From positions 1,406-65,405 of the forward strand of contig JAGQOU010000338.1 of the NCBI GenBank assembly GCA_020427145.1: DNA of 64,000 nt. The letters run 5' to 3'. Made by a program: the position numbers and the translations under genes. The notes beneath the pieces were generated by a model. It was not told the DNA's origin and ran no database searches. It saw nothing but the letters and a program-made list of their open reading frames with translations. Shown piece by piece: positions 33,197 to 64,000 of this stretch. Positions within the stretch are counted from its first letter, which is position 1, and every line of letters starts with the position of its first letter. The DNA comes from Planctomycetales bacterium (GTDB lineage: Bacteria > Planctomycetota > Planctomycetia > Pirellulales > Lacipirellulaceae).

Positions 33197-33272
<76 letters not shown>

Positions 33273-42100: not shown

Positions 42101-43805
42101 GCGCTGAGTAGAACCCATGGGGAACGCTCAACGTCGGCGTCGCAACAATGCCCGCATAACCCTCGCTGTTCGGCGCGCCGGGCGTGGGATTGGGCATGTA
42201 TTCCAGCGCCAACGTGTCGTCGACGAGCTCCGTCGCCGTCAGCCGAGGAACGGACAGCAGGTCGGAACTGACGTCGGTGATGTTCAGAGCGTGAATCGCG
42301 AGCACGTTCGTGCCCGCAACTAGGCTGTTCAGGTACGGCGTCAGGTTAAACTTCTGCGGCTGGACGGCCAAATTGTCGTCCCGATTCTCGGTGGCGTGCG
42401 ATTGATAATTCGGCAAGGCAGGCGCGGCCGCCGACGCGACGCGCACGCCGTTGAGATAGGCGACGAAGCCGTCGTCGTACTGCATATCGAGGGTCAGGGA
42501 ACCCAGCGCCGCGGGATCTGCGACGTCGAAATCGATTCGCTGGTAGACGCTGGTGGGATTCGAGTTCCACTGAGACGCGACGTTCAGGTCCACCAGTGGA
42601 GTAAAGTCGACGGCCCCGTTGGTGAGCAATTCGAATTCCGCGACCTGAATCGCAACGGGTTGGTTTTGCCCCGTGACCCCGAACTCCGTTTGCAGGTCAA
42701 ACCGGTAGTACTCGTAGGCGACGTAGTTCTCGAATTCATAGAGTCGCGTTTCAAACCGACCGGCAAAATTTTGCGCCGTGCGCGTGTCGATGACCGTGTA
42801 GTTGTTGCCGTCGTTCGAGCCGCTCAACGTCCAGGAATAGGGATCGCGATCCTCCGCGTCGTTGGCCGACGTGATGGTGTAAGCGCTAACGACTTGCTTG
42901 ACATTGTCGTCGAATTGAAACTCGTAGTAGGTGCCGGCGGGCATAAAGGCCAGCCACTTAGTAGCGGTGGAATTGTCGAGCGCCTTGTCTGGCTCTTCAT
43001 TGGTGGGCGACCCGGGAAAACCGCCGGCCGAGATTGTGCCGTTGACGACGCCATTCTCCTCAGGATCCGTGAAGTCGCCGCCAATCAGCCCTTCGGACAG
43101 TAGCGTGCCGTTGGGGATATTGGGCGGCGGGGCGTTGCCGACGTCGTAGCCCAGCCCCGAACCGCTGGAGGTCAACCAGCCGGCGTCATTAAACGAATTT
43201 AACGTCCATGCCGGCGGCACGCCAACCGACGGCGCATCGAGCGCGCCGTTGACGGGCAACAAGGCCGTCATTGGCGAGGCGGGGCCGACAAGCTCCAGCG
43301 CATTGACGTTCTCGTTGACGCCGTAGGAAACGTCGGTGCGCTGCGCCGGGTACTCGGGCGCAAATTCGTGAACTACGGTGTTCGCCGCATCCGTCAACGC
43401 GAGATACTCGCCGTCGGCGCTCAGACCGAAGTTTGCGTGCAGGCGGCCGTCGGCATCGACGTAGTCGTCAGTCGGCTGCCCCGAGGCGAACACGACCAGA
43501 TAACCGCCCGGTTCAAGGACCGTCTGGGGCGCTGCGGGAAACGTCCACTTCGCCGGACTCTGCTCGTCGTCAGTGAGGTGCCAGCCGGCCAGATCCACCG
43601 TCGCGGTCGTGGGATTGTAGATCTCGATCCAATCGGACGACTCGCCGTCTCCGTCGAAGAGCGTCGTGCTATTGGACGCCATGAACTCGCTAATCAACGG
43701 ACTTGCGCTGAGCAGATGGCGGTGCTCTAAGATCTCAAGCGAAAGCACTCGACGGCCAGGCGAAGGGTAACGCGTATCGGAGCGAGATGGCATAGGTGCG
43801 AACAC
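39186..43805 (-). CDS. Giant exoprotein: LTD - F5/8 type C - CHB_HEX_C-like - CotH kinase-like - CHB_HEX_C-like - LTD - double dockerin-like repeat
   Basis: 1539 aa. GTG start (the ATG at 43793 is the alternative). N-terminal GRRVLSLEILEHRHLLSA motif. Lamin-tail-like segments (ISEFMASN...DWIEIYNP...L.GW.L; later LVEFHYNP...EFIELLNP). Discoidin block at about 42624-43034. CotH-like blocks (HSMRLVFKG, VHLYINGVYWGLYTPVERPDD, YIDYLMLNFYMGNVDWPHRNWW, FISWDTE). Dockerin-like pair at 39558-39719. 123-aa acidic tail with no PEP-CTERM. Confidence 0.85.
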   Translation of the reverse strand: MFAPMPSRSDTRYPSPGRRVLSLEILEHRHLLSASPLISEFMASNSTTLFDGDGESSDWIEIYNPTTATVDLAGWHLTDDEQSPAKWTFPAAPQTVLEPGGYLVVFASGQPTDDYVDADGRLHANFGLSADGEYLALTDAANTVVHEFAPEYPAQRTDVSYGVNENVNALELVGPASPMTALLPVNGALDAPSVGVPPAWTLNSFNDAGWLTSSGSGLGYDVGNAPPPNIPNGTLLSEGLIGGDFTDPEENGVVNGTISAGGFPGSPTNEEPDKALDNSTATKWLAFMPAGTYYEFQFDDNVKQVVSAYTITSANDAEDRDPYSWTLSGSNDGNNYTVIDTRTAQNFAGRFETRLYEFENYVAYEYYRFDLQTEFGVTGQNQPVAIQVAEFELLTNGAVDFTPLVDLNVASQWNSNPTSVYQRIDFDVADPAALGSLTLDMQYDDGFVAYLNGVRVASAAAPALPNYQSHATENRDDNLAVQPQKFNLTPYLNSLVAGTNVLAIHALNITDVSSDLLSVPRLTATELVDDTLALEYMPNPTPGAPNSEGYAGIVATPTLSVPHGFYSAPFQLSIDSGVSPGDVYYTTDGSAPSPTNGSLYSAPITVSATTTIRVQAFHDGYLPSSPATSSYFFVDDIVQQTYLNTLNKGFPANWGPFSADYGLDPDVIGNFNSSGVSIGGDKYGGIYAATIKDDLQAIPTMSLVMDVDDLFGPTGIYTNSTASGSAWERAVSVEYIDPATGEEFQIDAGVRMHGGAFRNDSLSKKHSMRLVFKGIYEGNTKLDFPLFGNDAASSFDTIVLRMDSNDGYAWDAAGAKAQYARNAFGNESQLALGQPSSHHSRVHLYINGVYWGLYTPVERPDDSFAASYFGGAKDDWDAINSGAINSGTMDAWNTLVSLSHAVGSASSQSAKTAAYMQVLGLNPDGSDNPALATYLDATNYIDYLMLNFYMGNVDWPHRNWWAVRENVPDSTGFKFISWDTETALGLGSSVTTNRTGVSEGAAIPYSSLKSSEEFRIAFADRVHRAFFNDGPLSTAKSVARYLDITDEIAEAIVAESARWGDMHYSTPLVETQWINEIGNVLGFLNNRQSIFLNQLRSAGLYSNVTAPTFSQFGGQVPAGYDLTMSAPAGAIWYTTDGSDPRAIGGAVSATAQLYNGTPVDIVGAVQVRARALSGGVWSAANEAEFTSVAPADASNLRLVEFHYNPAPQAGVADEQSLEFIELLNPSNQPVSLDGVQIAQFASTPYSFPAGIELAAGARIVVAKDPVAFAAVYGAGVNLAPQGYGSASLSNGGERIALLGAQGQTIQDFTYDDSFPWPAVADGGGHSVEIVDPFADPAAGANWRASYYRGGSPGTSGEGPAVPGDFDGDADVDGGDFLIWQRGFGAAQLTATAADGDADADRDVDGADLAQWGASFGTTLAPAVAAAFSDQAAEAIEASRQSDFAGIALLMDDDAIAQDAWRDEAVFNGPHQDGMERGLSRSLTGESSPRPQTPRREEAQRRSGATRHRAAFDLALTHFGESWVARRNSGPADGMISGNE

Positions 43806-51359: not shown

Positions 51360-54300
51360 TTGAGAGGCAACGCTGTGGCTATTCCCCATCGGCCGCGAAA
51401 CCACGGGGCTCTGTCCCGCGGTCGCCGGCCTGTTTCGCATAGTTTGCATGTCGAGCATCTTGAGCCGCGGCATCTGCTCGCCGGCGACGTGTTCCTCATC
51501 AACTTCCAGTTCGACGAAGTGCCGACGCCCGACAGCTACGTGCGCGACGTCGGCGCCCTGTTCGGCGATCGCGGCAACGGCCTCACCTACGGCTGGTCGT
51601 CCGATCACACCGACGTGTCCCGCGACCGGGGCGTCGATCTCGATCAGCGCACCGACACGCTGATTCACTTTCACCAGAACGCCAACTGGGAATTGCAGCT
51701 GCCCAACGGCGACTACGAGGTGACGGTCGTCGTGGGCGATCCCGGCACCAACGACGGCGTGCATACCGTGAACGTCGAGGGGGTCAGCTTCTTTGCGGCT
51801 GTGCCCGACGGAAATACGCCGCTGTTGGCAACGCAGGTCGTGACAGTGGCCGACGGCCGCCTGACGCTCGATCAGGGCGCTGCCGCGGACAAGGCGACGC
51901 GCATCGACTACATCCACGTGATTGGCGTGCCCAGCGCCCCCAACGCGGCGCCGGCGGCGCCAACGGTCACTGAGCCGGCCGCCGAAGGGCAACAGGTCAA
52001 TCCCACCGACGTCCACATGGAAGCCGTGGGCTTTTCGGATGGCGACGGGAACGCCCATAAGTCGTCCGACTGGGAAATCTGGACGACCGGCGCGAGCCCC
52101 GAACTGGTGTGGGCGACCATCGGCATTCAGGGCGTCGAGCGTCTGCACACCCACCTGGGCGACGGCTTTTTCCAGAACTCCCACGCCGGCCGACTCGACC
52201 TGTTGCCCAATACGGACTATCAGCTGCGGGTGCGGTTCCGCGACGATGCCGGGTCGGTCAGCGCGTACTCCGTTCGCAACTTTCACACCACCAGCGCCAC
52301 AACGACGTTCCCCCTGCAGATTGAAGACGTTGTGGCATCGCCGGCGCCCGCTTGGGACACCGTGTTCGGCGCGCCCGTCGAGCTGCCGGACGGCACGACG
52401 ATCCTGTCGCCCGGCGATGCGATCGTGGCCATCGACACCGACGGCAACAGTTCGTATCCGGGCGGCGAATCGCCGCCCAACGCCGTCGACGGCACGCTCG
52501 CCAAGTATCTCAACTTTGGCGAGATCAACTCGGGCTTCATCGTGACGCCGGCGACCGGTTCGTCGACCGTCACCGGATTTCAAATCACCACGGCCAACGA
52601 CGCCGACGAGCGCGATCCCACCGCGTGGCAATTGTTTGGGACGAACAGCCCCGTCGTCAGCACCGACAACAGCACCGGAGCCGGCGAGAGCTGGACGCTG
52701 ATCGACTCGGGGTCCGTCGCGCTGCCGCTTGCGCGCGATACGCTGGGGCCGTTGGTGGCCGTGACCAACACGACCGCGTACACGTCGTACCGGATGGTGT
52801 TTACGGGAGTGCGGAACTCGGGGGCCGCCAACTCGATGCAGATTGGCGAGATCCAGTTCTTTGCCGACGACGCGGGTCCCGCAACGCCGCCGTCGCTGCG
52901 CATGGAAACGCCGGATGGCACGCCGCTGCTGCGAATCGACGGCGACTCGGCGCCTGGCAATCTTGTGACGGACTCTCCCACGCTGCCGTCTCACAAGCCG
53001 GTGCGAATCGTGATCGACGCCGGGTCGCGCGGCCTGTTTTTAGGCCAAAGCGATCTGACCTTCACCGACGAAACAGATAACGAACACACGATTTTCCTGC
53101 CCGAGGTTGATCTCGCCGCGGGCGAGTCGCTGACTCTTTGGGCGGCACTGGACGGGGCGACGTATTTTGGGACCGCAGGGCAGACGGCCCCCAATTTCGA
53201 CAGCCTCGCCCGTGCCGCCCAACTTGATTTGCCGTTTATTGCCCTGCAATCCGGCTTCATCGTCGAGGAGGTGGCGGGCGGCATGCAGTTGCCGACCAAC
53301 ATCGCCTTCGTCCCCAACCCTGGCTCCGCGCCCGGCGACCCGCTGTTTTACGTCACCGAGTTGTACGGCACGATCAAGGTCGTCACCAACGACGGCACGA
53401 CCAGCGACTACGCCACCGGGCTGCTCAATTTCAATCCGACCGGCAACTTCCCCGGCTCCGGCGAGCAGGGACTCACGGGAATCGTGGTCGATCCGGCCAC
53501 CGGCGATGTGATCGTCTCGCGCGTTCGCGACACCGACGGGCAACCGGGCGGCGCCCATCACCCGCAGGTCGTCAAGTTCACCAGCCTCGACGGCGGTCTC
53601 ACCGCCGCCACCGAAACGGTGCTGTTGGACATGGTGGGCGAGTCACAGGGGCAATCGCACCAAATCTCCAACGTGTCGATCGGGCCCGACGGGATGCTAT
53701 ACGTCCACAACGGCGATGGATTTGACGCAAGCACGGCGCTGAACCTCGACTCGTACCGCGGCAAGATTCTGCGAATGACGCTTGACGGCCAACCGTTGGC
53801 CGACAACCCCTTCTACAACGCCGGCAACGGGATCAACTCGCGCGACTACGTCTACGCATACGGTTTTCGCAATCCGTTTGGCGGCGCCTGGCGCGCGGCC
53901 GACGGCACGCACTATGAGGTCGAGAACGGACCGAGCAGCGATCGCTTTGCGAAGGTCAACCCGGGGCAGAGCTATCAGTGGGACGGCTCCAACGCGTCAA
54001 TGTTCACCAACGCGCTGTACAACTGGGATCCGGCCCACGCCCCGGTGAACATCGCGTTTGTGCAGCCCGAGACGTTTGGCGGCAGCGGCTTTCCCTCGCA
54101 ATACTGGGACCAGGCCTTTGTCAGCGAATCGGGCCCGACTTACGGCTTAGGTCCGCAGGTCCTTGGCAAGCGCATCGTCGGATTCCAATTGGACGCCCAG
54201 GGCAACGTCACCAGCGGACCGGAAACGTTGGTCGAGTACGTAGGCATGGGCCGCGGCACCGTGGTGGGACTGGCGGCGGGCCCCGATGGCTTGTACTTCA

Positions 54301-54959
54301 CCGAGTTGTATAAAGACGTCGACGCCGTGACGCCGATCGACGCCGGCGCACGCGTGTTCCGCGTCCGCTACATCGGCGGAAATTCAGCGGACTTCACCGG
54401 CGACGGGTTCGTCGACGGCGCCGACCTGTCGGTGTGGGAAACCAACTTCGGCGCGCCCAGCGGCGCCTCGCGCACCACCGGCGACGCCGACGCGGATCAT
54501 GACGTCGATGGCGCGGACTTCCTCCTCTGGCAACGCAGCTACTCGCCCGCTCCGGCGGCGGCAAACGAGGGCCTCGTCGCCGCTTCCAGCGGCTCCACCG
54601 CGTCGCTCGTCACAGCGGCGGCGAGTTTCGAGAGCGAACCGGCGGCGGCTGACTCACCCGACGAATCGTTAGCCGCGATGCCGTCGGTGGCCGCCGCCTG
54701 CGATCTGCTCAATCATGCGATGGGGACCGAGCACGACGGCGACGCTGCGGAGTTGCACGACGAGTTCTACGCGGATGTTTCGAGCCATTGGCGACCGCGA
54801 ACTGCGACCACGGAGACGGGATTCGACGCACCGAGCTTGAACCGGGCGGCGAGGCCAGGCCATCACGCTCAGCAGCACGACCAGGCGACTGACGCCGCGG
54901 GCGAGTTGGAGGGGATCGGACGGGCGCTGCGACATCTGTTGCGAGGCCGCGTCAGGTAA
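51360..54959 (+). CDS. Giant exoprotein: malectin-like CBM - discoidin-like module - PQQ-type sugar (sorbosone/glucose) dehydrogenase-like propeller - double dockerin-like repeat
   Basis: 1199 aa. Non-ATG start (TTG 51360 or GTG 51375). N-terminal RGRRPVSHSLHVEHLEPRHLLAG motif. Malectin-like FLINFQ...GLTYGWS...NGDYEVTVVVGD. Discoidin module at 52401-52862. SGDH-like blocks (LPTNIAFVP, YVTELYGTIKVV, GPDGMLYVHNGDG, GKILRMTLDGQPLADNPF, AYGFRNPFG). Dockerin-like pair at 54387-54542. 138-aa tail with no PEP-CTERM. Confidence 0.85.
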   Translation: MRGNAVAIPHRPRNHGALSRGRRPVSHSLHVEHLEPRHLLAGDVFLINFQFDEVPTPDSYVRDVGALFGDRGNGLTYGWSSDHTDVSRDRGVDLDQRTDTLIHFHQNANWELQLPNGDYEVTVVVGDPGTNDGVHTVNVEGVSFFAAVPDGNTPLLATQVVTVADGRLTLDQGAAADKATRIDYIHVIGVPSAPNAAPAAPTVTEPAAEGQQVNPTDVHMEAVGFSDGDGNAHKSSDWEIWTTGASPELVWATIGIQGVERLHTHLGDGFFQNSHAGRLDLLPNTDYQLRVRFRDDAGSVSAYSVRNFHTTSATTTFPLQIEDVVASPAPAWDTVFGAPVELPDGTTILSPGDAIVAIDTDGNSSYPGGESPPNAVDGTLAKYLNFGEINSGFIVTPATGSSTVTGFQITTANDADERDPTAWQLFGTNSPVVSTDNSTGAGESWTLIDSGSVALPLARDTLGPLVAVTNTTAYTSYRMVFTGVRNSGAANSMQIGEIQFFADDAGPATPPSLRMETPDGTPLLRIDGDSAPGNLVTDSPTLPSHKPVRIVIDAGSRGLFLGQSDLTFTDETDNEHTIFLPEVDLAAGESLTLWAALDGATYFGTAGQTAPNFDSLARAAQLDLPFIALQSGFIVEEVAGGMQLPTNIAFVPNPGSAPGDPLFYVTELYGTIKVVTNDGTTSDYATGLLNFNPTGNFPGSGEQGLTGIVVDPATGDVIVSRVRDTDGQPGGAHHPQVVKFTSLDGGLTAATETVLLDMVGESQGQSHQISNVSIGPDGMLYVHNGDGFDASTALNLDSYRGKILRMTLDGQPLADNPFYNAGNGINSRDYVYAYGFRNPFGGAWRAADGTHYEVENGPSSDRFAKVNPGQSYQWDGSNASMFTNALYNWDPAHAPVNIAFVQPETFGGSGFPSQYWDQAFVSESGPTYGLGPQVLGKRIVGFQLDAQGNVTSGPETLVEYVGMGRGTVVGLAAGPDGLYFTELYKDVDAVTPIDAGARVFRVRYIGGNSADFTGDGFVDGADLSVWETNFGAPSGASRTTGDADADHDVDGADFLLWQRSYSPAPAAANEGLVAASSGSTASLVTAAASFESEPAAADSPDESLAAMPSVAAACDLLNHAMGTEHDGDAAELHDEFYADVSSHWRPRTATTETGFDAPSLNRAARPGHHAQQHDQATDAAGELEGIGRALRHLLRGRVR

Positions 54960-55075: not shown

Positions 55076-56428
55076 CTATGCGCTGGCCAAACCGGGCAGC
55101 GGCCCGGTGCTGTCGCCCACGCGGTCGAGCGGCGCGCCAAGTCCTTGCAGCATGGTCAGGAACAAATTCATCAACGGCGTTTGCGACGGATAAGCGATGT
55201 GGCGCCCCGGTGCGAGCAAGCCGCCGCCGCGCCCCGCGACCAGCACCGGCAGGTCGTCGTGATTGTGGCGATTGCCGTCGCCGATGCCGCTGCCGTACAC
55301 GAGCATCGTGTTATCGAGCAGCGATTGCCCCTGCTCGTCCGCCGCGGCCAGCCGGCCCAGAATGTAGGCGAGTTGCTCCACGTGAAAGCGATTGATCTGC
55401 GTGATCTTTTCGAGTTTTTCGGCGCGCCCCTCATGGTGCGACAGGGCATGGTGGCCGTCGCTGATGCCGAGTTCGCGATAAGCGCGGTTGCTCCCCTCGT
55501 TGGCGATCATCAGCGTGCAGACCCGCGTGGCGTCGGTCCGAAACGCCAAGATCATCAAGTCGGCCATCAGCCGAATGCGTTCGCCATAGTCGTCCGGCGG
55601 ACCCTCGGGCCGGGCGAGTTGACCATCGGGCGATTGCAATGATGACGCACGCTCCAGCCGCTGTTCGATCTCGCGAATCCCCTCGACGTACTCCTGCAAC
55701 TTGTGCCGGTCGGCGCCGCTGAGCTGCGGTTGCAATTGCCGCGCATCGGCGGCGACAAAATCGAGGACGCTTTGCCTGCCCGTTTGCCGGCGGTAGCGCG
55801 ACTGTCGTTGATCAATCGCCGAGCCGGCGCTGAACAGACGATCGAACACCAGGGCGGGATTCGTTTCTTTGGGAAGCGGCTGGGTGGGCGACTTCCAGGC
55901 CAGCGTGTTGGAGTAGGCGCAGCTGTACCCGGAGTCGCAAGACCCCGCGAGCTTGCCCGGCTCGCAGCCCAGCTCCAACGACGGGAATTGCGTAGCGCGG
56001 CCGATGAGCTGTGCGGCGATCTGGTCGACCGACACGCCGGCGCGGATGTCGTTGCCGTTGGTCTTTACCGCTTGCGTGCCGGTGAGAAACGTCGCGGCGC
56101 TACGAGCGTGGTCCCCGGCGCCGTCGCCGTTGGCGCGGGCCTTGTCATGTGTCAGCCCGCTCAGCAACGTGATTTCCCGCTGAAACGGCTGGAGCGGCTC
56201 CAAGATGCGCGGCAGCTGAAAGTCGGCGCCCTCAGCCACGGGCTTCCACGCCGGCATGTGGATGCCGTTGGGAACGTAAAGCACTGCCAACCGCGTCGGC
56301 GACGGGGTCGGACCGGCAGCGGCGTACGCGCTTCCGGTCGGCAACAGGCTTTCCAACGCCGGCAGGGCGATGGCCGTGCCCAAACCACGCAAGAACTGCC
56401 GCCGCTCGAGACCTGGGTTCCGGGACAT
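55076..56428 (-). CDS. DUF1501 (sulfatase-fold) protein with Tat signal
   Basis: Start at the ATG at 56428 (MSRNPGLERRQFLRGLGTAIALPALE). DHARSAATFLTG and GNRHNHDDLPVLVAG blocks. The ATG overlaps the upstream gene's TGA by 1 nt. Confidence 0.9.
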   Translation of the reverse strand: MSRNPGLERRQFLRGLGTAIALPALESLLPTGSAYAAAGPTPSPTRLAVLYVPNGIHMPAWKPVAEGADFQLPRILEPLQPFQREITLLSGLTHDKARANGDGAGDHARSAATFLTGTQAVKTNGNDIRAGVSVDQIAAQLIGRATQFPSLELGCEPGKLAGSCDSGYSCAYSNTLAWKSPTQPLPKETNPALVFDRLFSAGSAIDQRQSRYRRQTGRQSVLDFVAADARQLQPQLSGADRHKLQEYVEGIREIEQRLERASSLQSPDGQLARPEGPPDDYGERIRLMADLMILAFRTDATRVCTLMIANEGSNRAYRELGISDGHHALSHHEGRAEKLEKITQINRFHVEQLAYILGRLAAADEQGQSLLDNTMLVYGSGIGDGNRHNHDDLPVLVAGRGGGLLAPGRHIAYPSQTPLMNLFLTMLQGLGAPLDRVGDSTGPLPGLASA

Positions 56429-58806
56429 CAGTGAGATTCCTCCTCGGCCGCTCCGGGGGAGCGAGCGTATTGAAAGGGCGTGCTCTTGACGATCGCCAGC
56501 GTCAACGCTGAAAAGCGATCGTCGCCCTGGGCGGCTACCGCCGCGATCTGCTCCACCGCGCAATGGTCGTAGTGCTCCAGCCCCCGCGCCAACGCAAAGG
56601 TGAGCAGCTTCTCCGTCAACGCCGTTCGGAAGTCGTCGAAACGGTCCAATAGCAGCGATCGCAGGCCAACCGGTCCTTGAAACTCCGTACCGTCGGGCAA
56701 CGAGCCCTTATCGTCAATCGGCTGGCCGGCGTCGGAATCGCGCAACCGGCCGAGAGCGTCGAAACGCTCCAGTGCAAAACCGAGCGGATCCATGTTGACG
56801 TGACACGATGCGCAACCGGGTTGGCTGCGATGCGCTTCGAGGCGCTCGCGCAGCGTCCCGGCGGGTTGCGTCGGATCGTGCTCCGGCAAGGGCGGTACGT
56901 TCGGCGGCGGCGGGGGAGGCTCGTCGCCCAACAAATTGGCGAGAATGTACTTGCCACGCACCACGGGCGACGTGCGATTGGGATGGCTGCTCACGGCCAG
57001 CGCACTAGCCAAGCCGAGCACGCCGCCCCGACCCTGGTTGCGTTGCTGGTCGCTGAGCGGCACGCGGCGGAACTCCGGCCCCGCGACGCCCTCGATCCCG
57101 TAGTGCCGGGCGAGTCGCTCGTTGAGGTACGTGAAATCGGCATCGAGAAAAGTGCGAATCGGCAGATCGTTGCGGACGATCTCCAAGGCGAACTCTTCGG
57201 TCTCCTGTCTCATCGCCGCGCGGAGTCCCTCGTCGAATTCGGGAAAGATTTGCGGGTCGGGACTCAATGTCTGTAACTGGCGGGTTTCGAGCCATTGTCC
57301 GGCGAAGCTCGTCGCCAAGTGCCTGGCCCGCTCGTCGTGCAACATCCGCGGCACCTGGGCGTCGAGTTCGCTGCGCAGTCGCCCGGCCGCCGCGAGTTGC
57401 AGCAACGTTCGGTCCGGCGTCGATCCCCAGAGGAAGTAACTCAATCGCGCCGCGAGTTCGAACTCGTCGACCTGGATCGCTTCGCCCGGGGGCGTCCCCG
57501 CCGGGACGTTCCCCAACAGCAGAAATCGGGGCGAGACCAACACCGCCTGCAGCGCCACCTGCATCGCTCGTTGGTAGCTGCCCCCGTCGTGTCGCACTTG
57601 TTCGAGAATCTGCAGCAACCGATCCACCTCGCCGGGCTCCACGGGCCGCCGCCAGGCGAGCGGCAAGAACTCGCGCCATTGTCCCGCGGCGATCTCGCGC
57701 CACCCGGCGCCAGATTGCCATTGCTCGGGGGCGGGCGTCTCCTTGAGCAGATTGTCGCGCGTCGCCGCGGGGGCCTGCTCCGCGAAATGGTGTGGTCCGG
57801 TGACCGACAGACTGTGAACGATGAGGTTGCGATCTCTCGCCGCGGGATCGCCCGCCTGCGGATTGTAATAGTCATTGAGAAAAGCGACGCCCAGTTCCAC
57901 CGTGGCGCCAGCGGCCAGATCAACCAGTACGGTGAAGTGATCAAACTCGTCGGCGTCCGCGCACACGTCGCACTCCAGCACCTGCCGACCGCCAGACTGC
58001 AGCGACATCCGCACGGGCTCGTCGCCCGCCTGTTCGCCGGCAACGACGGCGCACAATGCGTACTGACCGCTCTCTGGCGGCGTGAATTGGGCGGTCGCGG
58101 TCGCGCGGGTGTAGAGCCTCCTCCCCGCACCGCCGTCATGCACAGCCACGCCTGGGCCTTGGCTGAGGGCCATCGGCGCGCCTTGGTCGGGCAGGTTTTC
58201 CGGAGCGGGCACCGCCTGTTCGGCAATCTGCTCCGCGGCCGTGAGATACTTCTCGACCAACGCTGGCGACAAACTCAATACATTGGCGTTGTTGTCGAAC
58301 CCGTAGGCGAGCTCGTCGGGCGGGAAGAGTTCCGCCACGGCAAAGTCGACGCCCAGCAAATCGCGAATCGTGTTGCGATACTGCTCGCGGTTGAGCCTGC
58401 GCAGCGGAACGCGCCCTGGCTCAAGCTCGCCGGTGCAGTCGACTTGATCGAGCCGCGTTTGCAGCCACGCGATCAAGTCTTCTCGCTCCGCTGCGGCGGG
58501 CTGAGGCATCTCCTCGGGCGGCATGTCGCCGGCGCGAAGCCGCCGGACGACGTCGAGCCACCGCTGGCGATCCTGTTGAAAGTCGTCGCCGCCCTGAAGG
58601 CGATCGACAGCGAGCCCTGACTCGGCGTCATCGCCGGCGTGACAGTCGCCGCAATAGGTTGCCAACAGCGGACCGGCGAACGACTCGTACGCCGGCAACG
58701 GCTCAAGCGGCGCTTCCGCAACGGCCCCGTGAGAAATCAACCCTGCGATCGCCAACGCCAGCGCCCCAAGAGCGGCGTTGGCGCCGCGACTGTTCGTGTC
58801 GTGCAT
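56428..58806 (-). CDS. DUF1592/DUF1595/DUF1587/DUF1588/DUF1585-family protein with N-terminal CxxCH motif
   Basis: Start probably the ATG at 58806 (signal-like ALGALALAIAGLISHGAVA); the ORF track starts at 58914. YCGDCHAG heme-like motif. LSYFLWGSTPD, NERLARHYGI, RTSPVVRGKYI and CASCHVNMDPLGFALE blocks. Canonical partner of DUF1501 in Planctomycetota. Confidence 0.9.
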   Translation of the reverse strand: MHDTNSRGANAALGALALAIAGLISHGAVAEAPLEPLPAYESFAGPLLATYCGDCHAGDDAESGLAVDRLQGGDDFQQDRQRWLDVVRRLRAGDMPPEEMPQPAAAEREDLIAWLQTRLDQVDCTGELEPGRVPLRRLNREQYRNTIRDLLGVDFAVAELFPPDELAYGFDNNANVLSLSPALVEKYLTAAEQIAEQAVPAPENLPDQGAPMALSQGPGVAVHDGGAGRRLYTRATATAQFTPPESGQYALCAVVAGEQAGDEPVRMSLQSGGRQVLECDVCADADEFDHFTVLVDLAAGATVELGVAFLNDYYNPQAGDPAARDRNLIVHSLSVTGPHHFAEQAPAATRDNLLKETPAPEQWQSGAGWREIAAGQWREFLPLAWRRPVEPGEVDRLLQILEQVRHDGGSYQRAMQVALQAVLVSPRFLLLGNVPAGTPPGEAIQVDEFELAARLSYFLWGSTPDRTLLQLAAAGRLRSELDAQVPRMLHDERARHLATSFAGQWLETRQLQTLSPDPQIFPEFDEGLRAAMRQETEEFALEIVRNDLPIRTFLDADFTYLNERLARHYGIEGVAGPEFRRVPLSDQQRNQGRGGVLGLASALAVSSHPNRTSPVVRGKYILANLLGDEPPPPPPNVPPLPEHDPTQPAGTLRERLEAHRSQPGCASCHVNMDPLGFALERFDALGRLRDSDAGQPIDDKGSLPDGTEFQGPVGLRSLLLDRFDDFRTALTEKLLTFALARGLEHYDHCAVEQIAAVAAQGDDRFSALTLAIVKSTPFQYARSPGAAEEESH

Positions 58807-59290
58807 GGTAGTGACGCTGCCAGGAACAAAGTTCGCGGGCCATCGCTGCGCGATCCGCGCAACGTGCAAGACGCACCTACCACTATACGGCCACCGATAC
58901 GGCCCCGTAAACATGACGGAAGATTGCCTGAATTACCTCGCCGCAGACCACGAACTCGAATTCGCGTGGTTTTTCATCGCAGAGACGCACGCCGCGCTCA
59001 TCAGCCTCACTTCGCGATGAGCCATATTGCGATTCAATCTCTCCCATAGCGTGAAATCAGACACATTTCACGCGAGCGCGAGTCGCTGCGACGCGAATGC
59101 GTAGCCGAGATCGGACGGCCCGTCGCTGCCGCGATTCGGGGAAAAACTCATTGTTCGCACGTCTTCGCGCAATCTGAACAACGGAGCGAGCGGGCAAACG
59201 ATGCGAAACGTCGCTCGCGGCGCCAACGGTCGCTGTCGATGCGCGTCACGCATGGGCGTGGGGGCAAGTACGCTACCCTGCTGGCTGGCG

Positions 59291-60589
59291 TCACGTCGAC
59301 GCGGGATGCCGTGCCTTGCCCCGACTGGGGATCATCCGGCGCAGTCGATCCGATGCGAACGGGCGGGACACCTCGTCCGCATCAGTCCGACTCTCTCGTA
59401 AGGCCCAGCTGCCAGCTGCCAACGCCGCCAGAACCGACCACGAGGCGTAACTCCGTTCTCGTTCAGCCACAGGACTCACGGGGCCCGCCACGCCAGTCCA
59501 TGCGGCGAAGGCGGTGTCGCGTTCCGCGGTTGCGGCTTGATGCGAGTCCGTCTCGCCCTGCGCAGCGACGGATTCCGAACGCTCAACGCGCCCCGTGCGA
59601 ACCGTCGCCAGTGCGGGTTGAATCACTGTCGGCGATGCAATCTCCGCGGTTGCGCTACGGTGCGCGGACTCGCTCTCCCGCGAAGCCGTTGGAACCTGGT
59701 GGTTCGCTGGCTGGGTCTCGTGAGCATCAGCAAGAGATCGCGGCGCCGCGGCGGCGGCACGAAGCCGCGTCACGCGGGCTTCGACGAATGCGTCGGCGGG
59801 TTGGTCGACCGACGACAACGGCTCAACGTCGTGAACCTCATCAGCGCGGGCACGCGCTGGACCGCCGGACGCGATCGGCGGGGTCTCAGCGGCCGCGACC
59901 TCAAACGCCGCTTCGCGTCCCTGCGACGTCGTGAGACGCGGCAATGCGTTTCGCTTTGGCGCCTCCGAACCGCGGTGCATGTCAACGGGTTCGCGCTCCG
60001 TCAGATGCTGAGAATGTTCCCGCAAATCGACGAACGGCCCGGACAAGGACGCCAACGCCTCAGCCACGGGAATCTCGTTGGGCGCCTGCGGCAGAACGCC
60101 CGGCGTGGGAATGGTGGTTACGGACGCCGGAAACCAGCCGTAGAGACTGCCGTCCGAATCAAACGCCAGGTTCAGGGCGTGTCCGTCTACAGTCAAAGAA
60201 TAAAGCAGTTGGTCAGCGCTATAGTTATGGTTGTCGAAGAAGGAGACAACGGAGCCCGATACGCGCAACCGCTCCACAACATCCCCATCAGCCAACGCTA
60301 GGTCAGAGGCGGTGAGAGCGCTTTGAATGTCGATAGAACCTTGAGTCGTCGCCGAAGCGTCGAATCCTGCAAATACAATCGCCGACGCTGCCGCAGCGGG
60401 CTCGCGCAATTGCAGACGCAAAGCCGTCAAGTCAATCGACGTCGCGAGATCGCCGCTGGACGGAATGGTCGCCGACAATGTTGTTGCCAACGCCAGACGG
60501 TCTTCGCATTGTTCAAATGCAAGCCGGCGGCGCGAATCGCCGCTCGGAAGGTCACGGCGACGCTTACGTGCGATACGCCAATTCTTCAT
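59291..60589 (-). CDS. Hypothetical exported protein translationally coupled to the Ser/Thr kinase
   Basis: The ATG at 60589 overlaps the kinase TGA (ATGA). 432 aa. N-terminal basic stretch + SRRRLAFEQCEDRLALA motif. Middle beta-rich region. Long acidic/Ala-rich disordered half. Hydrophobic YASWSVLAALAAGSWAL near the C-terminus. Confidence 0.6.
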   Translation of the reverse strand: MKNWRIARKRRRDLPSGDSRRRLAFEQCEDRLALATTLSATIPSSGDLATSIDLTALRLQLREPAAAASAIVFAGFDASATTQGSIDIQSALTASDLALADGDVVERLRVSGSVVSFFDNHNYSADQLLYSLTVDGHALNLAFDSDGSLYGWFPASVTTIPTPGVLPQAPNEIPVAEALASLSGPFVDLREHSQHLTEREPVDMHRGSEAPKRNALPRLTTSQGREAAFEVAAAETPPIASGGPARARADEVHDVEPLSSVDQPADAFVEARVTRLRAAAAAPRSLADAHETQPANHQVPTASRESESAHRSATAEIASPTVIQPALATVRTGRVERSESVAAQGETDSHQAATAERDTAFAAWTGVAGPVSPVAERERSYASWSVLAALAAGSWALRESRTDADEVSRPFASDRLRRMIPSRGKARHPAST

Positions 60590-63492
60590 GACTGCTCTCC
60601 TAACTTCGCCAAGAGCTTTGCGTCGAGCCGGGTACGCACCGCCGCTGGCAAGGCGTCGCGGGGCAGCGGTCCGTCGGCCGCGGACCACGCTTCGATTGCC
60701 GCGGTCAAGGTCGTGGCCGCCTCGGCCAGTATAGCGTCCCGCGCGCGGTTGCCGTCCTCACCGCCGGCAAGCTCGTCGGCCGCCTCGGCCATCGCCAGGG
60801 CCATGGCATACAACGCGGGACCGTCGCCCTGCCACAACTCGCGCTGCTCGATCAACGCGGCCGCCGCGTCGCCGGAGCGACCGGCCGCCCGCAGACAGCG
60901 GACGTAGTTCGCGTAGTGCTTGCTCAGATAGTCATGGAACTGGCGCCGCTGGCCCGATTCGCTCCAAGCGGTGCGCTGCCGCGCAATCGCCGCCTCGTAG
61001 CGTCCGATCGCCGCCGCCCAGTCGCCAGCCGCCTCGTCCGCCATCGCCTGATTGTTGAGCACCCCGGCCAGCGCGCTGGCAAACCGCGTCTCCGCGGGAT
61101 AGTCGCGCACCAGTTCGTCCAGCAGCGCGATCGCTCGCTCGAACGCTTCCCGCGCACGCTGCGGCGCTCCGGAGCGCGTCTCCGCCTGGCCAAGATTGTT
61201 GAGCGTGACTGCCAAGTCGCTGCGATGTTGCACGACCGCCGGGGCCTGCCGCATGAGCGTCTCCTGAATGGCGGCCGCGTCGCGCAACGAAACGACCGCC
61301 GCTGCGCCGTCGTCCAAATGGCCCTGAATGGCGCCCAGGTTGTTCAAACACAACGCCAGGTCGGCTTGATACGTGGAGACGGCCGCCGATTCGCCGGCGG
61401 CCGAATCGACCAGTTCGCTGAGCACGGCGATCGCACGCTCGCACGAACGGCGCGCCGCGGCGAAGTCGCCCGGCTGCTGGACGAAGCTGTGATTATTCAG
61501 CGCGAGCGCCAAATCATATTTCGCGTCAGCCAGTTCGGGATCGCCAGCGACGACGCGCTCCAGCGTTTCGATAGCAGCCGCCAAATCGGCCTGCGCAGCC
61601 GCGTCGTCCCCCTGGCGTCGTGACAAGAGGCCGCGATTGGCTAGAATCTGGGCGAGTTGCCTGTGGCTTGCGGCGTCGGCGGGAGCGTTCCTGACCAGCG
61701 CCTCCTGCAATGCGGCGGCGCGCGTGTAGCAGCGTCCCGCCTGCTCGTTGTCGCCGTGCTCGGCGTACAACAGGCCCAAACTGTTCCAGCAGGCCGCTTG
61801 CTGCTGGCGATAATCCCCAGCCTCGTCGCCCTGGTCCGCCAGTTGGCCAAAGGCCTCGCTGGCGGCGCGCAGATACTGCTCGGCCGCGTCAAAATCGCCC
61901 AATCGCCCGGCGACCATGCCGGCCTGATACTGCGTGGTCGCCAACTCGGCCGTCAATTGCGAATCGCTCACCGCTTGGGCGATGAAATTGCGGTAATACT
62001 CCAGCGTGTCGGCCAGCACCGCGCGTCGCAGCGGCTCGCTGCCGGGGAGTCGTTCCAGTTCGCGCACAAACTGCCCGCCGAAGCGGTCCACGACGCGGCG
62101 GGCTTGGTCCAGGCTCGCCTGGGCGTCGGCCAGCGCGGCGGCGGTGCGGGCTTGTTCGCTCGATAGCAGTACCGCCCCGGTCGTGGACAACACGGCGACG
62201 ACGGCCACGAAACCTCCCAGCGCCGTCGCGGCAACGCGATGCCGGCGAACCAACTTGCTTGCGCGGTCAACCAGCGTGGGCCGGCGGGCATGCGTCGGCT
62301 TGCTGGCGAGGAACCGTCGCAGATCGGCCGCCAACTCGCCTGCCGTCGCGTAGCGATCCTCGCGGGACTTGGCCAGCGCGTGCATCACGACAGTCTCCAG
62401 GTCGATCGGCGTCTCGGCCGCCAGTTCGCGCAAGCGGCGCGGCTCACGCGCAATCACGGCCTGGGTCACTTCTCGGCGGTCGTCGCCGGGAAACGCCGGC
62501 TCCAGGGCGAGCAGTTCGTAAAGAGTCGCCCCCAACGAGTAAACGTCCGTCCGCGCGTCGACGAGCGCCTGATGGCCGGCAGCCTGTTCGGGACTCATGT
62601 AGCGCAGCGTGCCCACGACGTCGCCGGTCGCCGTGACGCCCGGGTCGCCCTGAATGCGAGCGAGACCGAAGTCAGTGATCCACACCCGGTTTCGCTCGTC
62701 GAGCAACAGGTTTGACGGCTTCACGTCGCGATGGATCACGCCGCAATCGTGGGCGTACTGCAAGGCGTCGGCGGCCTGAGCGCCGAGTTCCGCCACCGCG
62801 CGGCAGTAATCGCGCACGCAGCCGCGACGCGCGGCGCCCAGCTGCGTGGAACTGAGGACCGAGTTGGGCGACGAGTCGGCCGCCGGCGCAGTCGTTCCGC
62901 CCGGACCCGCCGTTTCGGCGCTGCGCAGCGCGGCGGCTCGGCGCAACTCGAGAATCAGCCGATCGAGCGACTGACCCTGCACCAGTTGCATCGCATAGAA
63001 GTGGACGCCCCGCTCCTGGCCGACGCCGAACACGGGCACAATGTGCGGGTGATGCAATTGCGCAGCGGCACGGGCCTCGTTCTGAAATCGCGTCAGCTGC
63101 TTGCGGTCCCACATCGCGGCAAACGGCAATACCTTTAGCGCGACGCGACGCGTGAGCGAAATCTGTTCCGCCTCGTACACGACGCCCATGCCGCCGCGGC
63201 CCAACTCGCGGACAATGCGATAATCACCCAGGCGACTTTCCGGCGACGCGACGCTGGGGCCGCGCGTCGCGTCCTCGGGCGTCGCAGCGCCTTGCGCGGC
63301 GCGATGCAGTTGCTCGATACTGCGAGCAAACTCGCGAATATCCGCCGCCAGCGCAGGATGGGCCGCCGCCAGGGCGTCAATATCAAGCGGCGCCCCCGCC
63401 TCCAACGAGACAAGATACTCGTCGAGTAGCGTCGCGAGTCGCTCATCGACTGGGTGATCGATCGTGGTCGACGCCCCGGGTGCGCGATTCAT
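60586..63492 (-). CDS. Ser/Thr protein kinase with TM segment and large TPR repeat domain
   Basis: Start at the ATG at 63492, overlapping the sigma-factor TGA (ATGA). Kinase subdomains GRGGMGVVYEA, ALKVL, HRDVKPSNLLLD, DFGLA and SPEQ. TM segment ALGGFVAVVAVLSTTGAVLL. About 10 TPR-like units with recurring LNNLG / L.NRG helices. Confidence 0.9.
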   Translation of the reverse strand: MNRAPGASTTIDHPVDERLATLLDEYLVSLEAGAPLDIDALAAAHPALAADIREFARSIEQLHRAAQGAATPEDATRGPSVASPESRLGDYRIVRELGRGGMGVVYEAEQISLTRRVALKVLPFAAMWDRKQLTRFQNEARAAAQLHHPHIVPVFGVGQERGVHFYAMQLVQGQSLDRLILELRRAAALRSAETAGPGGTTAPAADSSPNSVLSSTQLGAARRGCVRDYCRAVAELGAQAADALQYAHDCGVIHRDVKPSNLLLDERNRVWITDFGLARIQGDPGVTATGDVVGTLRYMSPEQAAGHQALVDARTDVYSLGATLYELLALEPAFPGDDRREVTQAVIAREPRRLRELAAETPIDLETVVMHALAKSREDRYATAGELAADLRRFLASKPTHARRPTLVDRASKLVRRHRVAATALGGFVAVVAVLSTTGAVLLSSEQARTAAALADAQASLDQARRVVDRFGGQFVRELERLPGSEPLRRAVLADTLEYYRNFIAQAVSDSQLTAELATTQYQAGMVAGRLGDFDAAEQYLRAASEAFGQLADQGDEAGDYRQQQAACWNSLGLLYAEHGDNEQAGRCYTRAAALQEALVRNAPADAASHRQLAQILANRGLLSRRQGDDAAAQADLAAAIETLERVVAGDPELADAKYDLALALNNHSFVQQPGDFAAARRSCERAIAVLSELVDSAAGESAAVSTYQADLALCLNNLGAIQGHLDDGAAAVVSLRDAAAIQETLMRQAPAVVQHRSDLAVTLNNLGQAETRSGAPQRAREAFERAIALLDELVRDYPAETRFASALAGVLNNQAMADEAAGDWAAAIGRYEAAIARQRTAWSESGQRRQFHDYLSKHYANYVRCLRAAGRSGDAAAALIEQRELWQGDGPALYAMALAMAEAADELAGGEDGNRARDAILAEAATTLTAAIEAWSAADGPLPRDALPAAVRTRLDAKLLAKLGEQS

Positions 63493-64000
63493 GGCGTCTC
63501 CCCGGCAGTTTCGCTCGCGTCGATCATCCGCTCGCGCAGTTCGCGAATCGCCCGCAGCCAGATCATGCGCACCGCGCCAGCCGATCGCTCCATATGTTGC
63601 CCAATGGCCTCGAACGGCAAGCTCTGCAAATGTCGCAGGACGATCACCTCGCGATAGTCCGCAGGCAGGGACGCCAGGCAATTGGCCAAGGCCAGTTGCT
63701 GCTCGTTCTGCTGCAGTCGCGCGCTGGGCGACGCGATGGATTCGGCCAGGATTGAGTCCAGGCGCACCGTCGATTGCTCGAGGGAGTTGGCCACGGCGTC
63801 GAGCGACACCTCGCGGTGCACCGAGCGTTTCGCCGCCAGCACGTGCTGCTCGACGGCTCGGTGGACGTTGTTCACAAGAATTCGCCGCAGCCAGGCGCAG
63901 AACTCGCCGGCCGACGTTCCGCGGAATTGCCCAAAGTCCCGATTGGCCTCCAGAAAAGTCTCCTGCACGACATCCGATGGGCTCAACCGCCGGCGCAGGG
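63489..64000 (-). CDS. ECF-type sigma-70 family factor (5' end outside window)
   Basis: The frame is open to the window edge. Region 2 ..DVVQETFLEANRDFGQFRG....F.AWLRRILVNN. Region 4 LPFEAIGQHMERSAGAVRMIWLRAIRELRE. Confidence 0.85.
   Translation of the reverse strand, partial: LRRRLSPSDVVQETFLEANRDFGQFRGTSAGEFCAWLRRILVNNVHRAVEQHVLAAKRSVHREVSLDAVANSLEQSTVRLDSILAESIASPSARLQQNEQQLALANCLASLPADYREVIVLRHLQSLPFEAIGQHMERSAGAVRMIWLRAIRELRERMIDASETAGETP

Follow-up and report, generated by a model that had tools for sequence, protein, structure and literature searches.

A three-gene operon on the minus strand of a planctomycete contig

The minus strand of the window (the whole 64,000-nucleotide stretch of contig JAGQOU010000338.1, from a Planctomycetales bacterium, that we analyzed) carries three co-oriented reading frames within positions 59291-64000. 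They encode an extracytoplasmic function (ECF) sigma factor, a Hanks-type Ser/Thr kinase with a tetratricopeptide repeat (TPR) domain, and a 432-amino-acid (aa) protein of no assigned family, which we call the third protein and whose gene we call the third gene. An earlier note on this DNA had described an ECF sigma factor, a Ser/Thr kinase with TPRs and a coupled third gene, a description that the domain matches reported below bear out. Our results indicate that the third protein is probably a previously undescribed third part of the sigma-kinase signaling system. The genes and their junctions are as follows.

63489..64000, minus strand: ECF sigma factor gene; its 5' end lies beyond the window edge, and the complete protein has 214 aa (P0003)
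60586..63492, minus strand: Hanks-type Ser/Thr kinase gene, 968 aa; conserved N-terminal region, kinase domain, one membrane helix and TPR domain
59291..60589, minus strand: third gene, 432 aa; no assigned family, product predicted to be exported, C-terminally anchored and largely unstructured
63489..63492, minus strand: ATGA overlap of sigma stop and kinase start, read in the sequence
60586..60589, minus strand: ATGA overlap of kinase stop and third-gene start, read in the sequence
60597..60601, minus strand: AGGAG ribosome-binding site, 7 nt ahead of the third-gene ATG

Both junctions had been reported as ATGA overlaps, and all of the positions proved correct when the sequence was read again: the ATG of the kinase gene (63492-63490) overlaps the sigma TGA (63491-63489), and the ATG of the third gene (60589-60587) overlaps the kinase TGA, with which the kinase gene ends at 60586. 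Among related loci, the same 4-nt overlap occurs at 29 of 78 sigma/kinase junctions and at 22 of 61 kinase/third-gene junctions, and the latter have a gap of no more than 60 nt in 58 of the 61. From these overlaps we infer that the three genes are probably carried on one transcript and translationally coupled. Consensus scans for sigma-70 promoters and terminators in the junctions and the 484-nt spacer returned nothing above chance, and the single match in an Rfam scan of the window was a tRNA gene at 33197-33270 on the plus strand.

The third gene is followed on the same strand by a pair of genes (55076-58914) that the earlier note had assigned to the DUF1592 family and DUF1501. The DUF1592-family assignment stands (the gene has PSD2-5, PSCyt3 and CBM60 matches and a weak cytochrome c match), while the second gene belongs to DUF1552 (HXXSHH, 362 bits). 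Behind the trio, this pair is found in just two contigs, the near-identical L001 and L002, and not in locus L085 or any of the other loci described below. Since the genes past the trio differ among L085, the window and other loci, the conserved unit is the three genes, and the DUF1592/DUF1552 pair lies outside it.

Evidence that the third reading frame is a gene

The third protein matched no Pfam or NCBIfam family at E <= 0.01 and none in PADLOC, and the gene call of the source contig covers 301 aa (P0002; 59291-60196, minus strand), starting at an internal TTG and lacking both the N-terminal motif described below and the overlap with the kinase gene. That the annotation calls just 301 aa could mean that, the DNA being GC-rich, the 432 codons form an open frame by chance; the GC content at third codon positions (GC3) of 0.67, compared with 0.78-0.80 (about 0.79) in the neighboring genes, and the presence of an antisense open reading frame (ORF) of 254 aa could be taken the same way. 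The comparative data essentially exclude this explanation. A syntenic homologue, P0001, is 81% identical to the third protein over the full 432 aa, the N-terminal 44 residues included, and the 44 aa N-terminal to the source's start are near-identical in it. The ratio of non-synonymous to synonymous substitution rates (dN/dS) against the syntenic homologue takes values of 0.32 (aa 1-45), 0.35 (aa 156-240) and 0.32 (from aa 241 onward); in these three of four segments, those outside aa 46-155, third-position changes exceed those at first and second positions. For the DUF1592 gene the same comparison gives 0.14. An indel relative to the L001 copy is in frame, and the N-terminal motif is retained in about 70 loci and in P0123, a distant homologue that is 37% identical and also syntenic. 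The 81% identical syntenic homologue, the dN/dS values of 0.32-0.35, the third-position excess and the positional conservation in about 70 of 71 loci together indicate that the third ORF is a real gene, and the AGGAG located 7 nt ahead of the ATG supports the 432-aa start over the 301-aa start.

The third gene is a near-constant neighbor of the sigma and kinase genes

To define the neighborhood, we used 80 loci anchored on orthologues of the sigma factor in one-genome-per-species bacterial contigs from Pirellulales; a further 333 relatives of the sigma factor fall outside this set. The loci include Bythopirellula, Lacipirellula, Adhaeretor, Thermoguttaceae, Rubripirellula and many Pirellulales metagenome-assembled genomes (MAGs). 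Of the 80 loci, 78 continue beyond the sigma gene, and in every one of them the next gene is a colinear orthologue of the kinase over its whole length. A tblastn search of the 80 loci with the third protein gave no match at 1e-5, and the non-conservation of the third gene that this null result pointed to was overturned by a survey of ORFs and motifs, which revealed conservation of position. At or just after the kinase stop lies a same-strand frame of 350-600 aa with a basic N-terminus and the motif RRLxFExxExRxxLS about 30 residues in. A strict filter recovered a third gene of this architecture in 61 of the 71 loci with enough flanking sequence, and re-inspection of the ten that it missed found the gene in nine, one of these copies being truncated, for a total of about 70 of 71; these frames begin no more than about 60 nt past the kinase stop. 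The motif occurs in 5.5% of the other ORFs of the same loci. The earlier note had considered that the third gene might never be conserved with ECF sigma-kinase pairs; the survey gave the opposite result, and the third gene belongs to the sigma-kinase module.

A context-blind, exhaustive HMMER search of 1.84 billion representative proteins led to the same place. It returned a single distant homologue, P0123, which is the product of the third gene in Pirellulales MAG locus L085, where the sigma factor is 78% identical and the junctions are GTGA and ATGA overlaps. Several genomes contain two paralogous trios (e.g., L029 and L067 in Lacipirellula limnantheis), and both sigma lineages carry a third gene. 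A word-indexed search of proteins, queried first by the third protein and next by a family alignment of 19 sequences, retrieved only the window's own fragment and P0001, the index being blind to this low-complexity family, and two scans of JGI metagenome contigs (with the protein and with alignment A4) gave pattern matches, none of which was confirmed as a relative. One locus with the full trio, L010 (CAXMSB010000264.1), is labeled 'uncultured Granulosicoccus sp.', a gammaproteobacterium; its content is Pirellulales-like, and the label is probably a binning error.

When stripped of the motif, the third proteins split into several clusters by BLAST. Iterated profiles connect the window protein with 27 third proteins, whose alignment contains conserved islands (I-P-x-P...GG-x-I, S-x-G-R-E-x-A-F-E-V-A, R-D-x-A-F-A-x-W and a C-terminal hydrophobic segment with basic tail), and hhalign comparisons between motif-stripped subfamilies find similarity only in the C-terminal part (89% and 79%). 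The third-protein family is thus defined by position and architecture, not by sequence.

The sigma factor has a serine-containing motif in region 2.2

The sigma factor matches Sigma70_r2 and Sigma70_r4/r4_2 and scores 76.5 bits against TIGR02937 (sigma70-ECF; cutoff 42.9), which identifies it as an ECF sigma factor (sigma-70 group 4). Against TIGR02984 (Sig-70_plancto1, the Planctomycetaceae-specific subfamily 1), the window copy, which is without its first 45 residues, scores 187.6 bits compared with a cutoff of 183.75. Homologues number 2092 at E <= 1e-10, and the best 120 of these 2092 are 60-78% identical. The feature of the sigma factor that bears on its control is the following.

63972..63983, minus strand: codons for S51-P52-S53-D54 in region 2.2, at the site of the acidic DAED-type motif of canonical ECF sigma factors

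Located directly ahead of the region 2.2 helix VVQETF, these four residues do not vary among 18 orthologues (alignment A1), and alignment to solved structures places S51 opposite an Asp in E. coli RpoE (1or7) and a Glu in 6in7. According to two reviews, ECF sigma factors regulated by kinases have uncharged Ser/Thr residues in place of the DAED patch, and the charge required for binding RNA polymerase is regained when a Thr (ECF43) or a Ser (ECF59/60) is phosphorylated (PMC8999054; PMC8103513). The SPSD motif is compatible with activation by phosphorylation, in part only since the final Asp is kept, and it appears to fit the serine-type ECF groups (PMC8103513) better than ECF43, the group that the earlier note had brought up. 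Pfam and NCBIfam scans detected no anti-sigma domain in the kinase or the third protein.

The kinase is predicted to place a TPR domain in the periplasm

The kinase gives a Pkinase match of 133.5 bits and has all of the catalytic motifs expected of a Hanks-type enzyme: GRGGMGVV (aa 98), VALK (117), HRDVKPSN (254), DFGLA (274) and SPE (300). It can be divided as follows.

62350..63216, minus strand: catalytic domain, aa 93-381 (PK_Tyr_Ser-Thr match aa 93-381), predicted to be cytoplasmic
62152..62220, minus strand: transmembrane helix, aa 425-447, preceded by the basic stretch RRPTLVDRASKLVRRHR
60589..62145, minus strand: TPR-rich C-terminal domain, aa 450-968, a predicted periplasmic sensor

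By Kyte-Doolittle 19-mer score (2.16), the helix ranks first in the protein, and exactly one helix at the equivalent position is present in each of the 58 kinase orthologues analyzed (58/58). According to the positive-inside rule, the basic flank of a membrane helix stays in the cytoplasm. The single helix with its basic N-terminal flank therefore leads us to predict a single-pass protein with a cytoplasmic catalytic domain and a periplasmic TPR domain. Matches to TPR_2, TPR_12, TPR_8, TPR_1 and TPR_10 lie between aa 517 and 790. Median identity to the orthologues is 58% for the catalytic domain (58 orthologues) and 35% for the TPR domain, and the last 276 codons have a dN/dS of 0.15 relative to the nearest relative. 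In PADLOC, the kinase matched only generic kinase-domain models (PD-T4-6, mad6; approximately aa 76-460), and neither the sigma factor nor the third protein matched any model; a reading of the operon as an anti-phage defense system was dropped on this result.

The third protein combines a putative export-type N-terminus, a variable stretch and a predicted C-terminal anchor

We recognized six features in the third protein.

60485..60532, minus strand: N-terminal motif RRRLAFEQCEDRLALA, aa 20-35, with a strongly basic stretch ahead of it
60125..60454, minus strand: hypervariable stretch, aa 46-155, dN/dS 1.9 versus L001
60050..60112, minus strand: conserved island IPTPGVLPQAPNEIPVAEALA, aa 160-180; consensus I.P...P...P..GG.I in alignment A2
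59894..59926, minus strand: short linear motif SQGREAAFEVA, aa 222-232; V231 and A232 invariant, and E230 nearly so, in alignment A2
59498..59524, minus strand: short linear motif ERDTAFAAW, aa 356-364; consensus RDAAFAEW in alignments A2 and A3
59294..59440, minus strand: C-terminal hydrophobic segment WSVLAALAAGSWAL (aa 384-397) and basic tail; the tail of 35 aa contains 9 Arg/Lys and 7 Ser/Thr

The N-terminal motif that had been noticed earlier in the 432-aa protein was found at aa 20-35, in a region with 11 Arg/Lys within the first 45 aa. It conforms to the consensus RRLxxExLExRxLLA, located near the N-terminus, except that Cys replaces the central Leu, and its R21, L23, E29, R31 and L34 are invariant in 19 family members (alignment A3). 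PMC8567305, citing Studholme et al. 2004, describes the Planc_extracel motif (PF07595), a model of 20 residues, as a planctomycete-specific sequence that putatively marks cell-surface proteins for export. The N-terminal 60 aa of the third protein score 14.0 bits against it (E = 0.041), below the 25.5-bit cutoff; the equivalent motifs of related third-gene proteins and of one large surface protein of the window score 19.3-19.4 bits, also below 25.5.

Following the motif, aa 46-155 form the most indel-rich part of the family alignment. Relative to L001, this stretch has a dN of 0.349 and a dS of 0.182, with 68 non-synonymous and 14 synonymous changes (Fisher p = 0.04 for dN > dS, and 1.6e-5 relative to the rest of the third gene). 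Two more distant Lacipirellula pairs have no window of dN/dS >1 and an overall ratio of 0.24; because they never exceed 1, the hypervariable stretch is documented in the window lineage only. The two short linear motifs are conserved: SQGREAAFEVA is identical in P0001 and P0123, and R357, D358, A360, F361, A362, A363 and W364 are invariant (both in alignment A4).

The C-terminal hydrophobic segment of the earlier description is present, though weak (Kyte-Doolittle 1.33), at aa 384-397. Of 61 family members, 48 end in this way, with a hydrophobic 15-mer in their final 90 aa and a net-positive tail behind it; the tail often contains PPRR. The half that was also described as acidic and Ser/Thr-rich is both only to a mild degree, with a pI of ~5.5, 17% Ser+Thr and 20% Ala. 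An AlphaFold2 model from a three-sequence alignment had a mean pLDDT of 31 and was uninformative, including on the beta-rich middle that had been claimed. The motif, the hydrophobic segment and the positive tail lead us to predict that the third protein is exported and C-terminally anchored, with its body in the periplasm. The proposal that it is exported thus fits a Planc_extracel-type motif, albeit a sub-threshold one.

In related loci, a promoter-like motif precedes the sigma gene and nearby surface-protein genes

Upstream of the sigma gene in 55 of 79 loci is the sequence CGTGACA followed by C(G/T)GCC(T), and in 53 the two halves have one fixed spacing of 14 nt. The element, CGTGACA-N14-CGGCCT, is located 34-167 nt ahead of the sigma ATG, and a closely similar form with CGGTC at its end occurs in the second sigma lineage. 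In a position weight matrix (PWM) scan of 1.38 Mb, on both strands and at >=18 bits, hits were almost confined to two sites, one upstream of sigma genes and the other, seen in about ten loci, at 1.1-1.5 kb from the kinase stop, immediately behind the third gene (L004 14719, L012 14681, L018 14686, L041 15124, L043 14822, L047 15054, L050 14965, L069 14761 and L071 14869). In the loci that we checked, the fourth genes behind this second copy encode large proteins whose domains are of the Beta_propel, Big_9, cadherin-like, RTX, dockerin or serpin type, and a Planc_extracel-type N-terminus is present on most of the fourth-gene products examined. This distribution suggests an autoregulated ECF promoter with a small local regulon, in which the fourth genes are likely targets of the sigma factor. 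The third gene has no copy of the motif of its own behind the kinase gene, which speaks for its co-transcription.

In the second sigma lineage (L051-L082), a divergently transcribed gene of 330-460 aa lies upstream of the sigma gene (e.g., L067 8521-9687, minus strand; L054 5511-7637, minus strand); its product matches no Pfam family and has the N-terminal sequence RFE(S/T)LE(K/N)RLAL.VTA.V.DGDL. Some loci of this lineage have, farther upstream, an animal-type heme peroxidase gene whose product carries a Planc_extracel-type motif. In the window, two ORFs have a Planc_extracel-type start: 39186-43805 (minus strand, 1539 aa), with Lamin-tail, CotH, chitobiase C-terminal and F5/8-type-C domains, and 51360-54959 (plus strand, 1199 aa), which has a dockerin-like C-terminus besides a glucose/sorbosone dehydrogenase domain.

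A model for the operon and its alternatives

We propose, at roughly even confidence, that the trio is a three-gene signaling operon found across Pirellulales in which the exported, membrane-anchored third protein partners the periplasmic sensor of the kinase. According to this model, the sigma factor would be inactive until the kinase phosphorylates a serine of SPSD (S51 or S53), a step suggested by that motif and by analogy to EcfP/PknT in Vibrio. The TPR domain of ~520 aa would serve as the periplasmic sensor. The third protein would be exported via its Planc_extracel motif and held in the inner membrane by the C-terminal hydrophobic segment, with its basic tail in the cytoplasm, such that its long, poorly structured ectodomain would share a compartment with the TPR domain. 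There it could act as an accessory co-sensor or a tethered ligand that sets kinase activity. TPR domains typically bind conserved short linear motifs, and GREAAFEVA and RDxAFAxW of the ectodomain are candidate TPR-binding motifs. The partnership is proposed because the two would occupy the same compartment, are invariably co-encoded, and because the third protein has short linear motifs of a type that TPR domains bind. The variable stretch (aa 46-155) may contact a changing external cue, and the activated sigma factor would direct its own expression and that of the local regulon through CGTGACA-N14-CGGCCT, a motif seen in relatives only.

Several observations weigh against this model or parts of it. 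The N-terminal motif is below the Pfam threshold (14.0 versus 25.5 bits), and to our knowledge the export function of Planc_extracel itself has never been demonstrated. The hydrophobic segment of the third protein is weak (15-mer score 1.33), 13 of 61 relatives fail the combined test of hydrophobic segment and positive tail, and a subset of the third proteins of the second lineage ends differently: the products of L052, L059, L065, L070 and L081 are without the C-terminal hydrophobic segment and have a conserved VGxYQAFD(V/I)G near the C-terminus. Between the third proteins of the two sigma lineages there is no significant similarity beyond motif and architecture (hhalign 1.2%), and since no similarity is detectable, non-orthologous replacement of the third gene between lineages is possible. 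Contact between the third protein and the TPR domain is a proposal on which the AlphaFold model (mean pLDDT 31) is uninformative. Moreover, the C-terminal part of the TPR domain is conserved relative to the nearest relative (dN/dS 0.15), unlike the variable stretch of the third protein, which indicates that the two are not co-evolving. Because the sigma factor retains D54 of the DAED-equivalent position, it may not depend fully on phosphorylation. Finally, neither a PWM nor an exact-pattern search found the promoter motif in the window, and it is also missing from the 314 nt that precede the sigma gene of the window. Those 314 nt lie beyond window position 64000 and correspond to positions 1-314 of L083, which matches the window exactly for 720 nt; only 8 nt separate GTGACA from CGGCC in them, rather than 14. 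In a second sample, L084 (positions 1-52), the sigma protein is the same but the sequence upstream differs and has the canonical downstream half, TCTGCCTATCATG, at which the contig ends. This difference could reflect strain variation, promoter decay or an assembly artifact.

The main alternative is that the third protein is output only, an envelope or surface protein encoded on an autoregulated sigma-kinase transcript and produced, as the neighboring large surface proteins are, each time the system is active, with no role in sensing or in controlling the kinase. The third protein shares its Planc_extracel-type N-terminus with the predicted sigma targets next to it (among them beta-propeller, cadherin and dockerin proteins), its fast evolution, GC3 of 0.67 and one stretch with dN/dS >1 are typical of exposed surface proteins, and its similarity is undetectable across the two sigma lineages, all of which such an explanation would accommodate. 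A cargo gene, however, would not be expected to keep its place behind the kinase gene in two paralogous lineages and about 70 of 71 loci, often joined by a 4-nt overlap, while every other flanking gene changes; the fourth genes, by contrast, vary in type and own a promoter copy. We regard the output-only explanation as possible but somewhat unlikely. Another alternative moves the third protein to the other side of the membrane, as a tail-anchored partner whose bulk is cytoplasmic and whose disordered region is a kinase substrate, a scaffold or an unconventional anti-sigma factor. The motif is sub-threshold in Pfam and without a classical hydrophobic core, 17% of the residues are Ser/Thr, and the kinase-linked ECF groups otherwise have no anti-sigma factor (PMC7826278), leaving such a role unfilled. 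The net-positive tail in 48 of 61 members points instead to a cytoplasmic tail and an external body by the positive-inside rule, and it is this charge that makes a substrate or anti-sigma-like role in the cytoplasm less likely. In addition, the same motif heads proteins with clearly extracellular domains in the window and in related loci, no anti-sigma domain was detected, and the disordered region is not unusually rich in Ser/Thr. Taken together, we consider a cytoplasmic partner improbable.

Within the proposed model of a periplasmic partner, the third protein could have a more specific role as an obligatory tethered sensor. It would bind the TPR domain via GREAAFEVA and RDxAFAxW and thereby keep the kinase off; damage to, cleavage of, or capture of its fast-evolving stretch by a protease, phage, predator or competitor would then free the kinase, and the sigma factor would be phosphorylated. 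We think it unlikely that the third protein is such a sacrificial sentinel, although, if it were, its universal retention and its extreme sequence turnover would both be explained, and the mode of ECF control would be one so far undescribed.

Significance

ECF sigma factor/Ser-Thr kinase pairs are abundant in Planctomycetes, yet the examples studied (EcfP/PknT and EcfK/PknS) are proteobacterial. If the third protein is a fixed part of the system, then the two-component picture, in which the kinase replaces the anti-sigma factor, is incomplete for a large family. The third-protein family itself is truncated by gene callers and sits outside all domain databases. The work also links the Planc_extracel 'export signal' with a regulatory system and with a local group of genes for surface proteins. 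Candidate handles on the system include the CGTGACA-N14-CGGCCT promoter as a reporter, the two candidate TPR-binding peptides, and the candidate phospho-acceptor serines S51 and S53, and three cultured strains carry the trio: Bythopirellula polymerisocia Pla144, Lacipirellula limnantheis I41 and Adhaeretor mobilis HG15A2. Pairs of ECF sigma and kinase genes in Planctomycetes were already known (PMC7826278); the main texts of this literature do not describe the universally kept third gene with its predicted exported and anchored product, the promoter motif or the link to surface-protein genes.

Comparison with known systems

The window operon resembles EcfP/PknT of Vibrio parahaemolyticus and EcfK/PknS of Xanthomonas citri (ECF43) in that the sigma gene adjoins a gene for a membrane Ser/Thr kinase and no anti-sigma gene is recognizable. 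In EcfP, the DAED patch is partly replaced by the hydroxyl residues STTA, and the window sigma factor has SPSD at this site. Relative to EcfP/PknT and EcfK/PknS, the window sigma factor has Ser rather than Thr and keeps the last Asp, and the window kinase has a large predicted periplasmic TPR domain. Furthermore, a third, predicted exported protein is near-invariable in operons of the window type, whereas the sources consulted for EcfP/PknT describe no such partner.

Closer to home are the planctomycetal kinase-linked ECF groups (the original ECF59-62; ECF217 of Casas-Pastor et al. 2021), which belong to the same phylum and share the sigma-then-kinase order and the lack of a recognizable anti-sigma factor. 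For ECF59/60, a serine, not a threonine, is the proposed phospho-acceptor (PMC7826278, PMC8103513). The main-text descriptions of ECF59-62/ECF217 name only the kinase as a conserved neighbor and include no third gene.

The proposed role of the third protein has a parallel, by analogy only, in YycH and YycI of the Bacillus WalRK operon, single-pass membrane proteins with an extracytoplasmic body that are encoded right after the sensor kinase WalK and control its activity. There the partners are a histidine kinase plus a response regulator, whereas here they are a Hanks-type kinase and a sigma factor, and there is no sequence relationship. YycH and YycI are also N-terminally anchored and folded, while the third protein is predicted to be C-terminally anchored and largely unstructured.

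Finally, the third protein shares with the Planc_extracel (PF07595) surface proteins the N-terminal consensus RRLxxExLExRxLLA after a basic stretch. Typical members, such as the products of window ORFs 39186-43805 and 51360-54959, are large and have recognizable extracellular domains and no C-terminal anchor; the third protein, in contrast, has no known domain, a predicted C-terminal anchor, and a sub-threshold motif with Cys for the central Leu.

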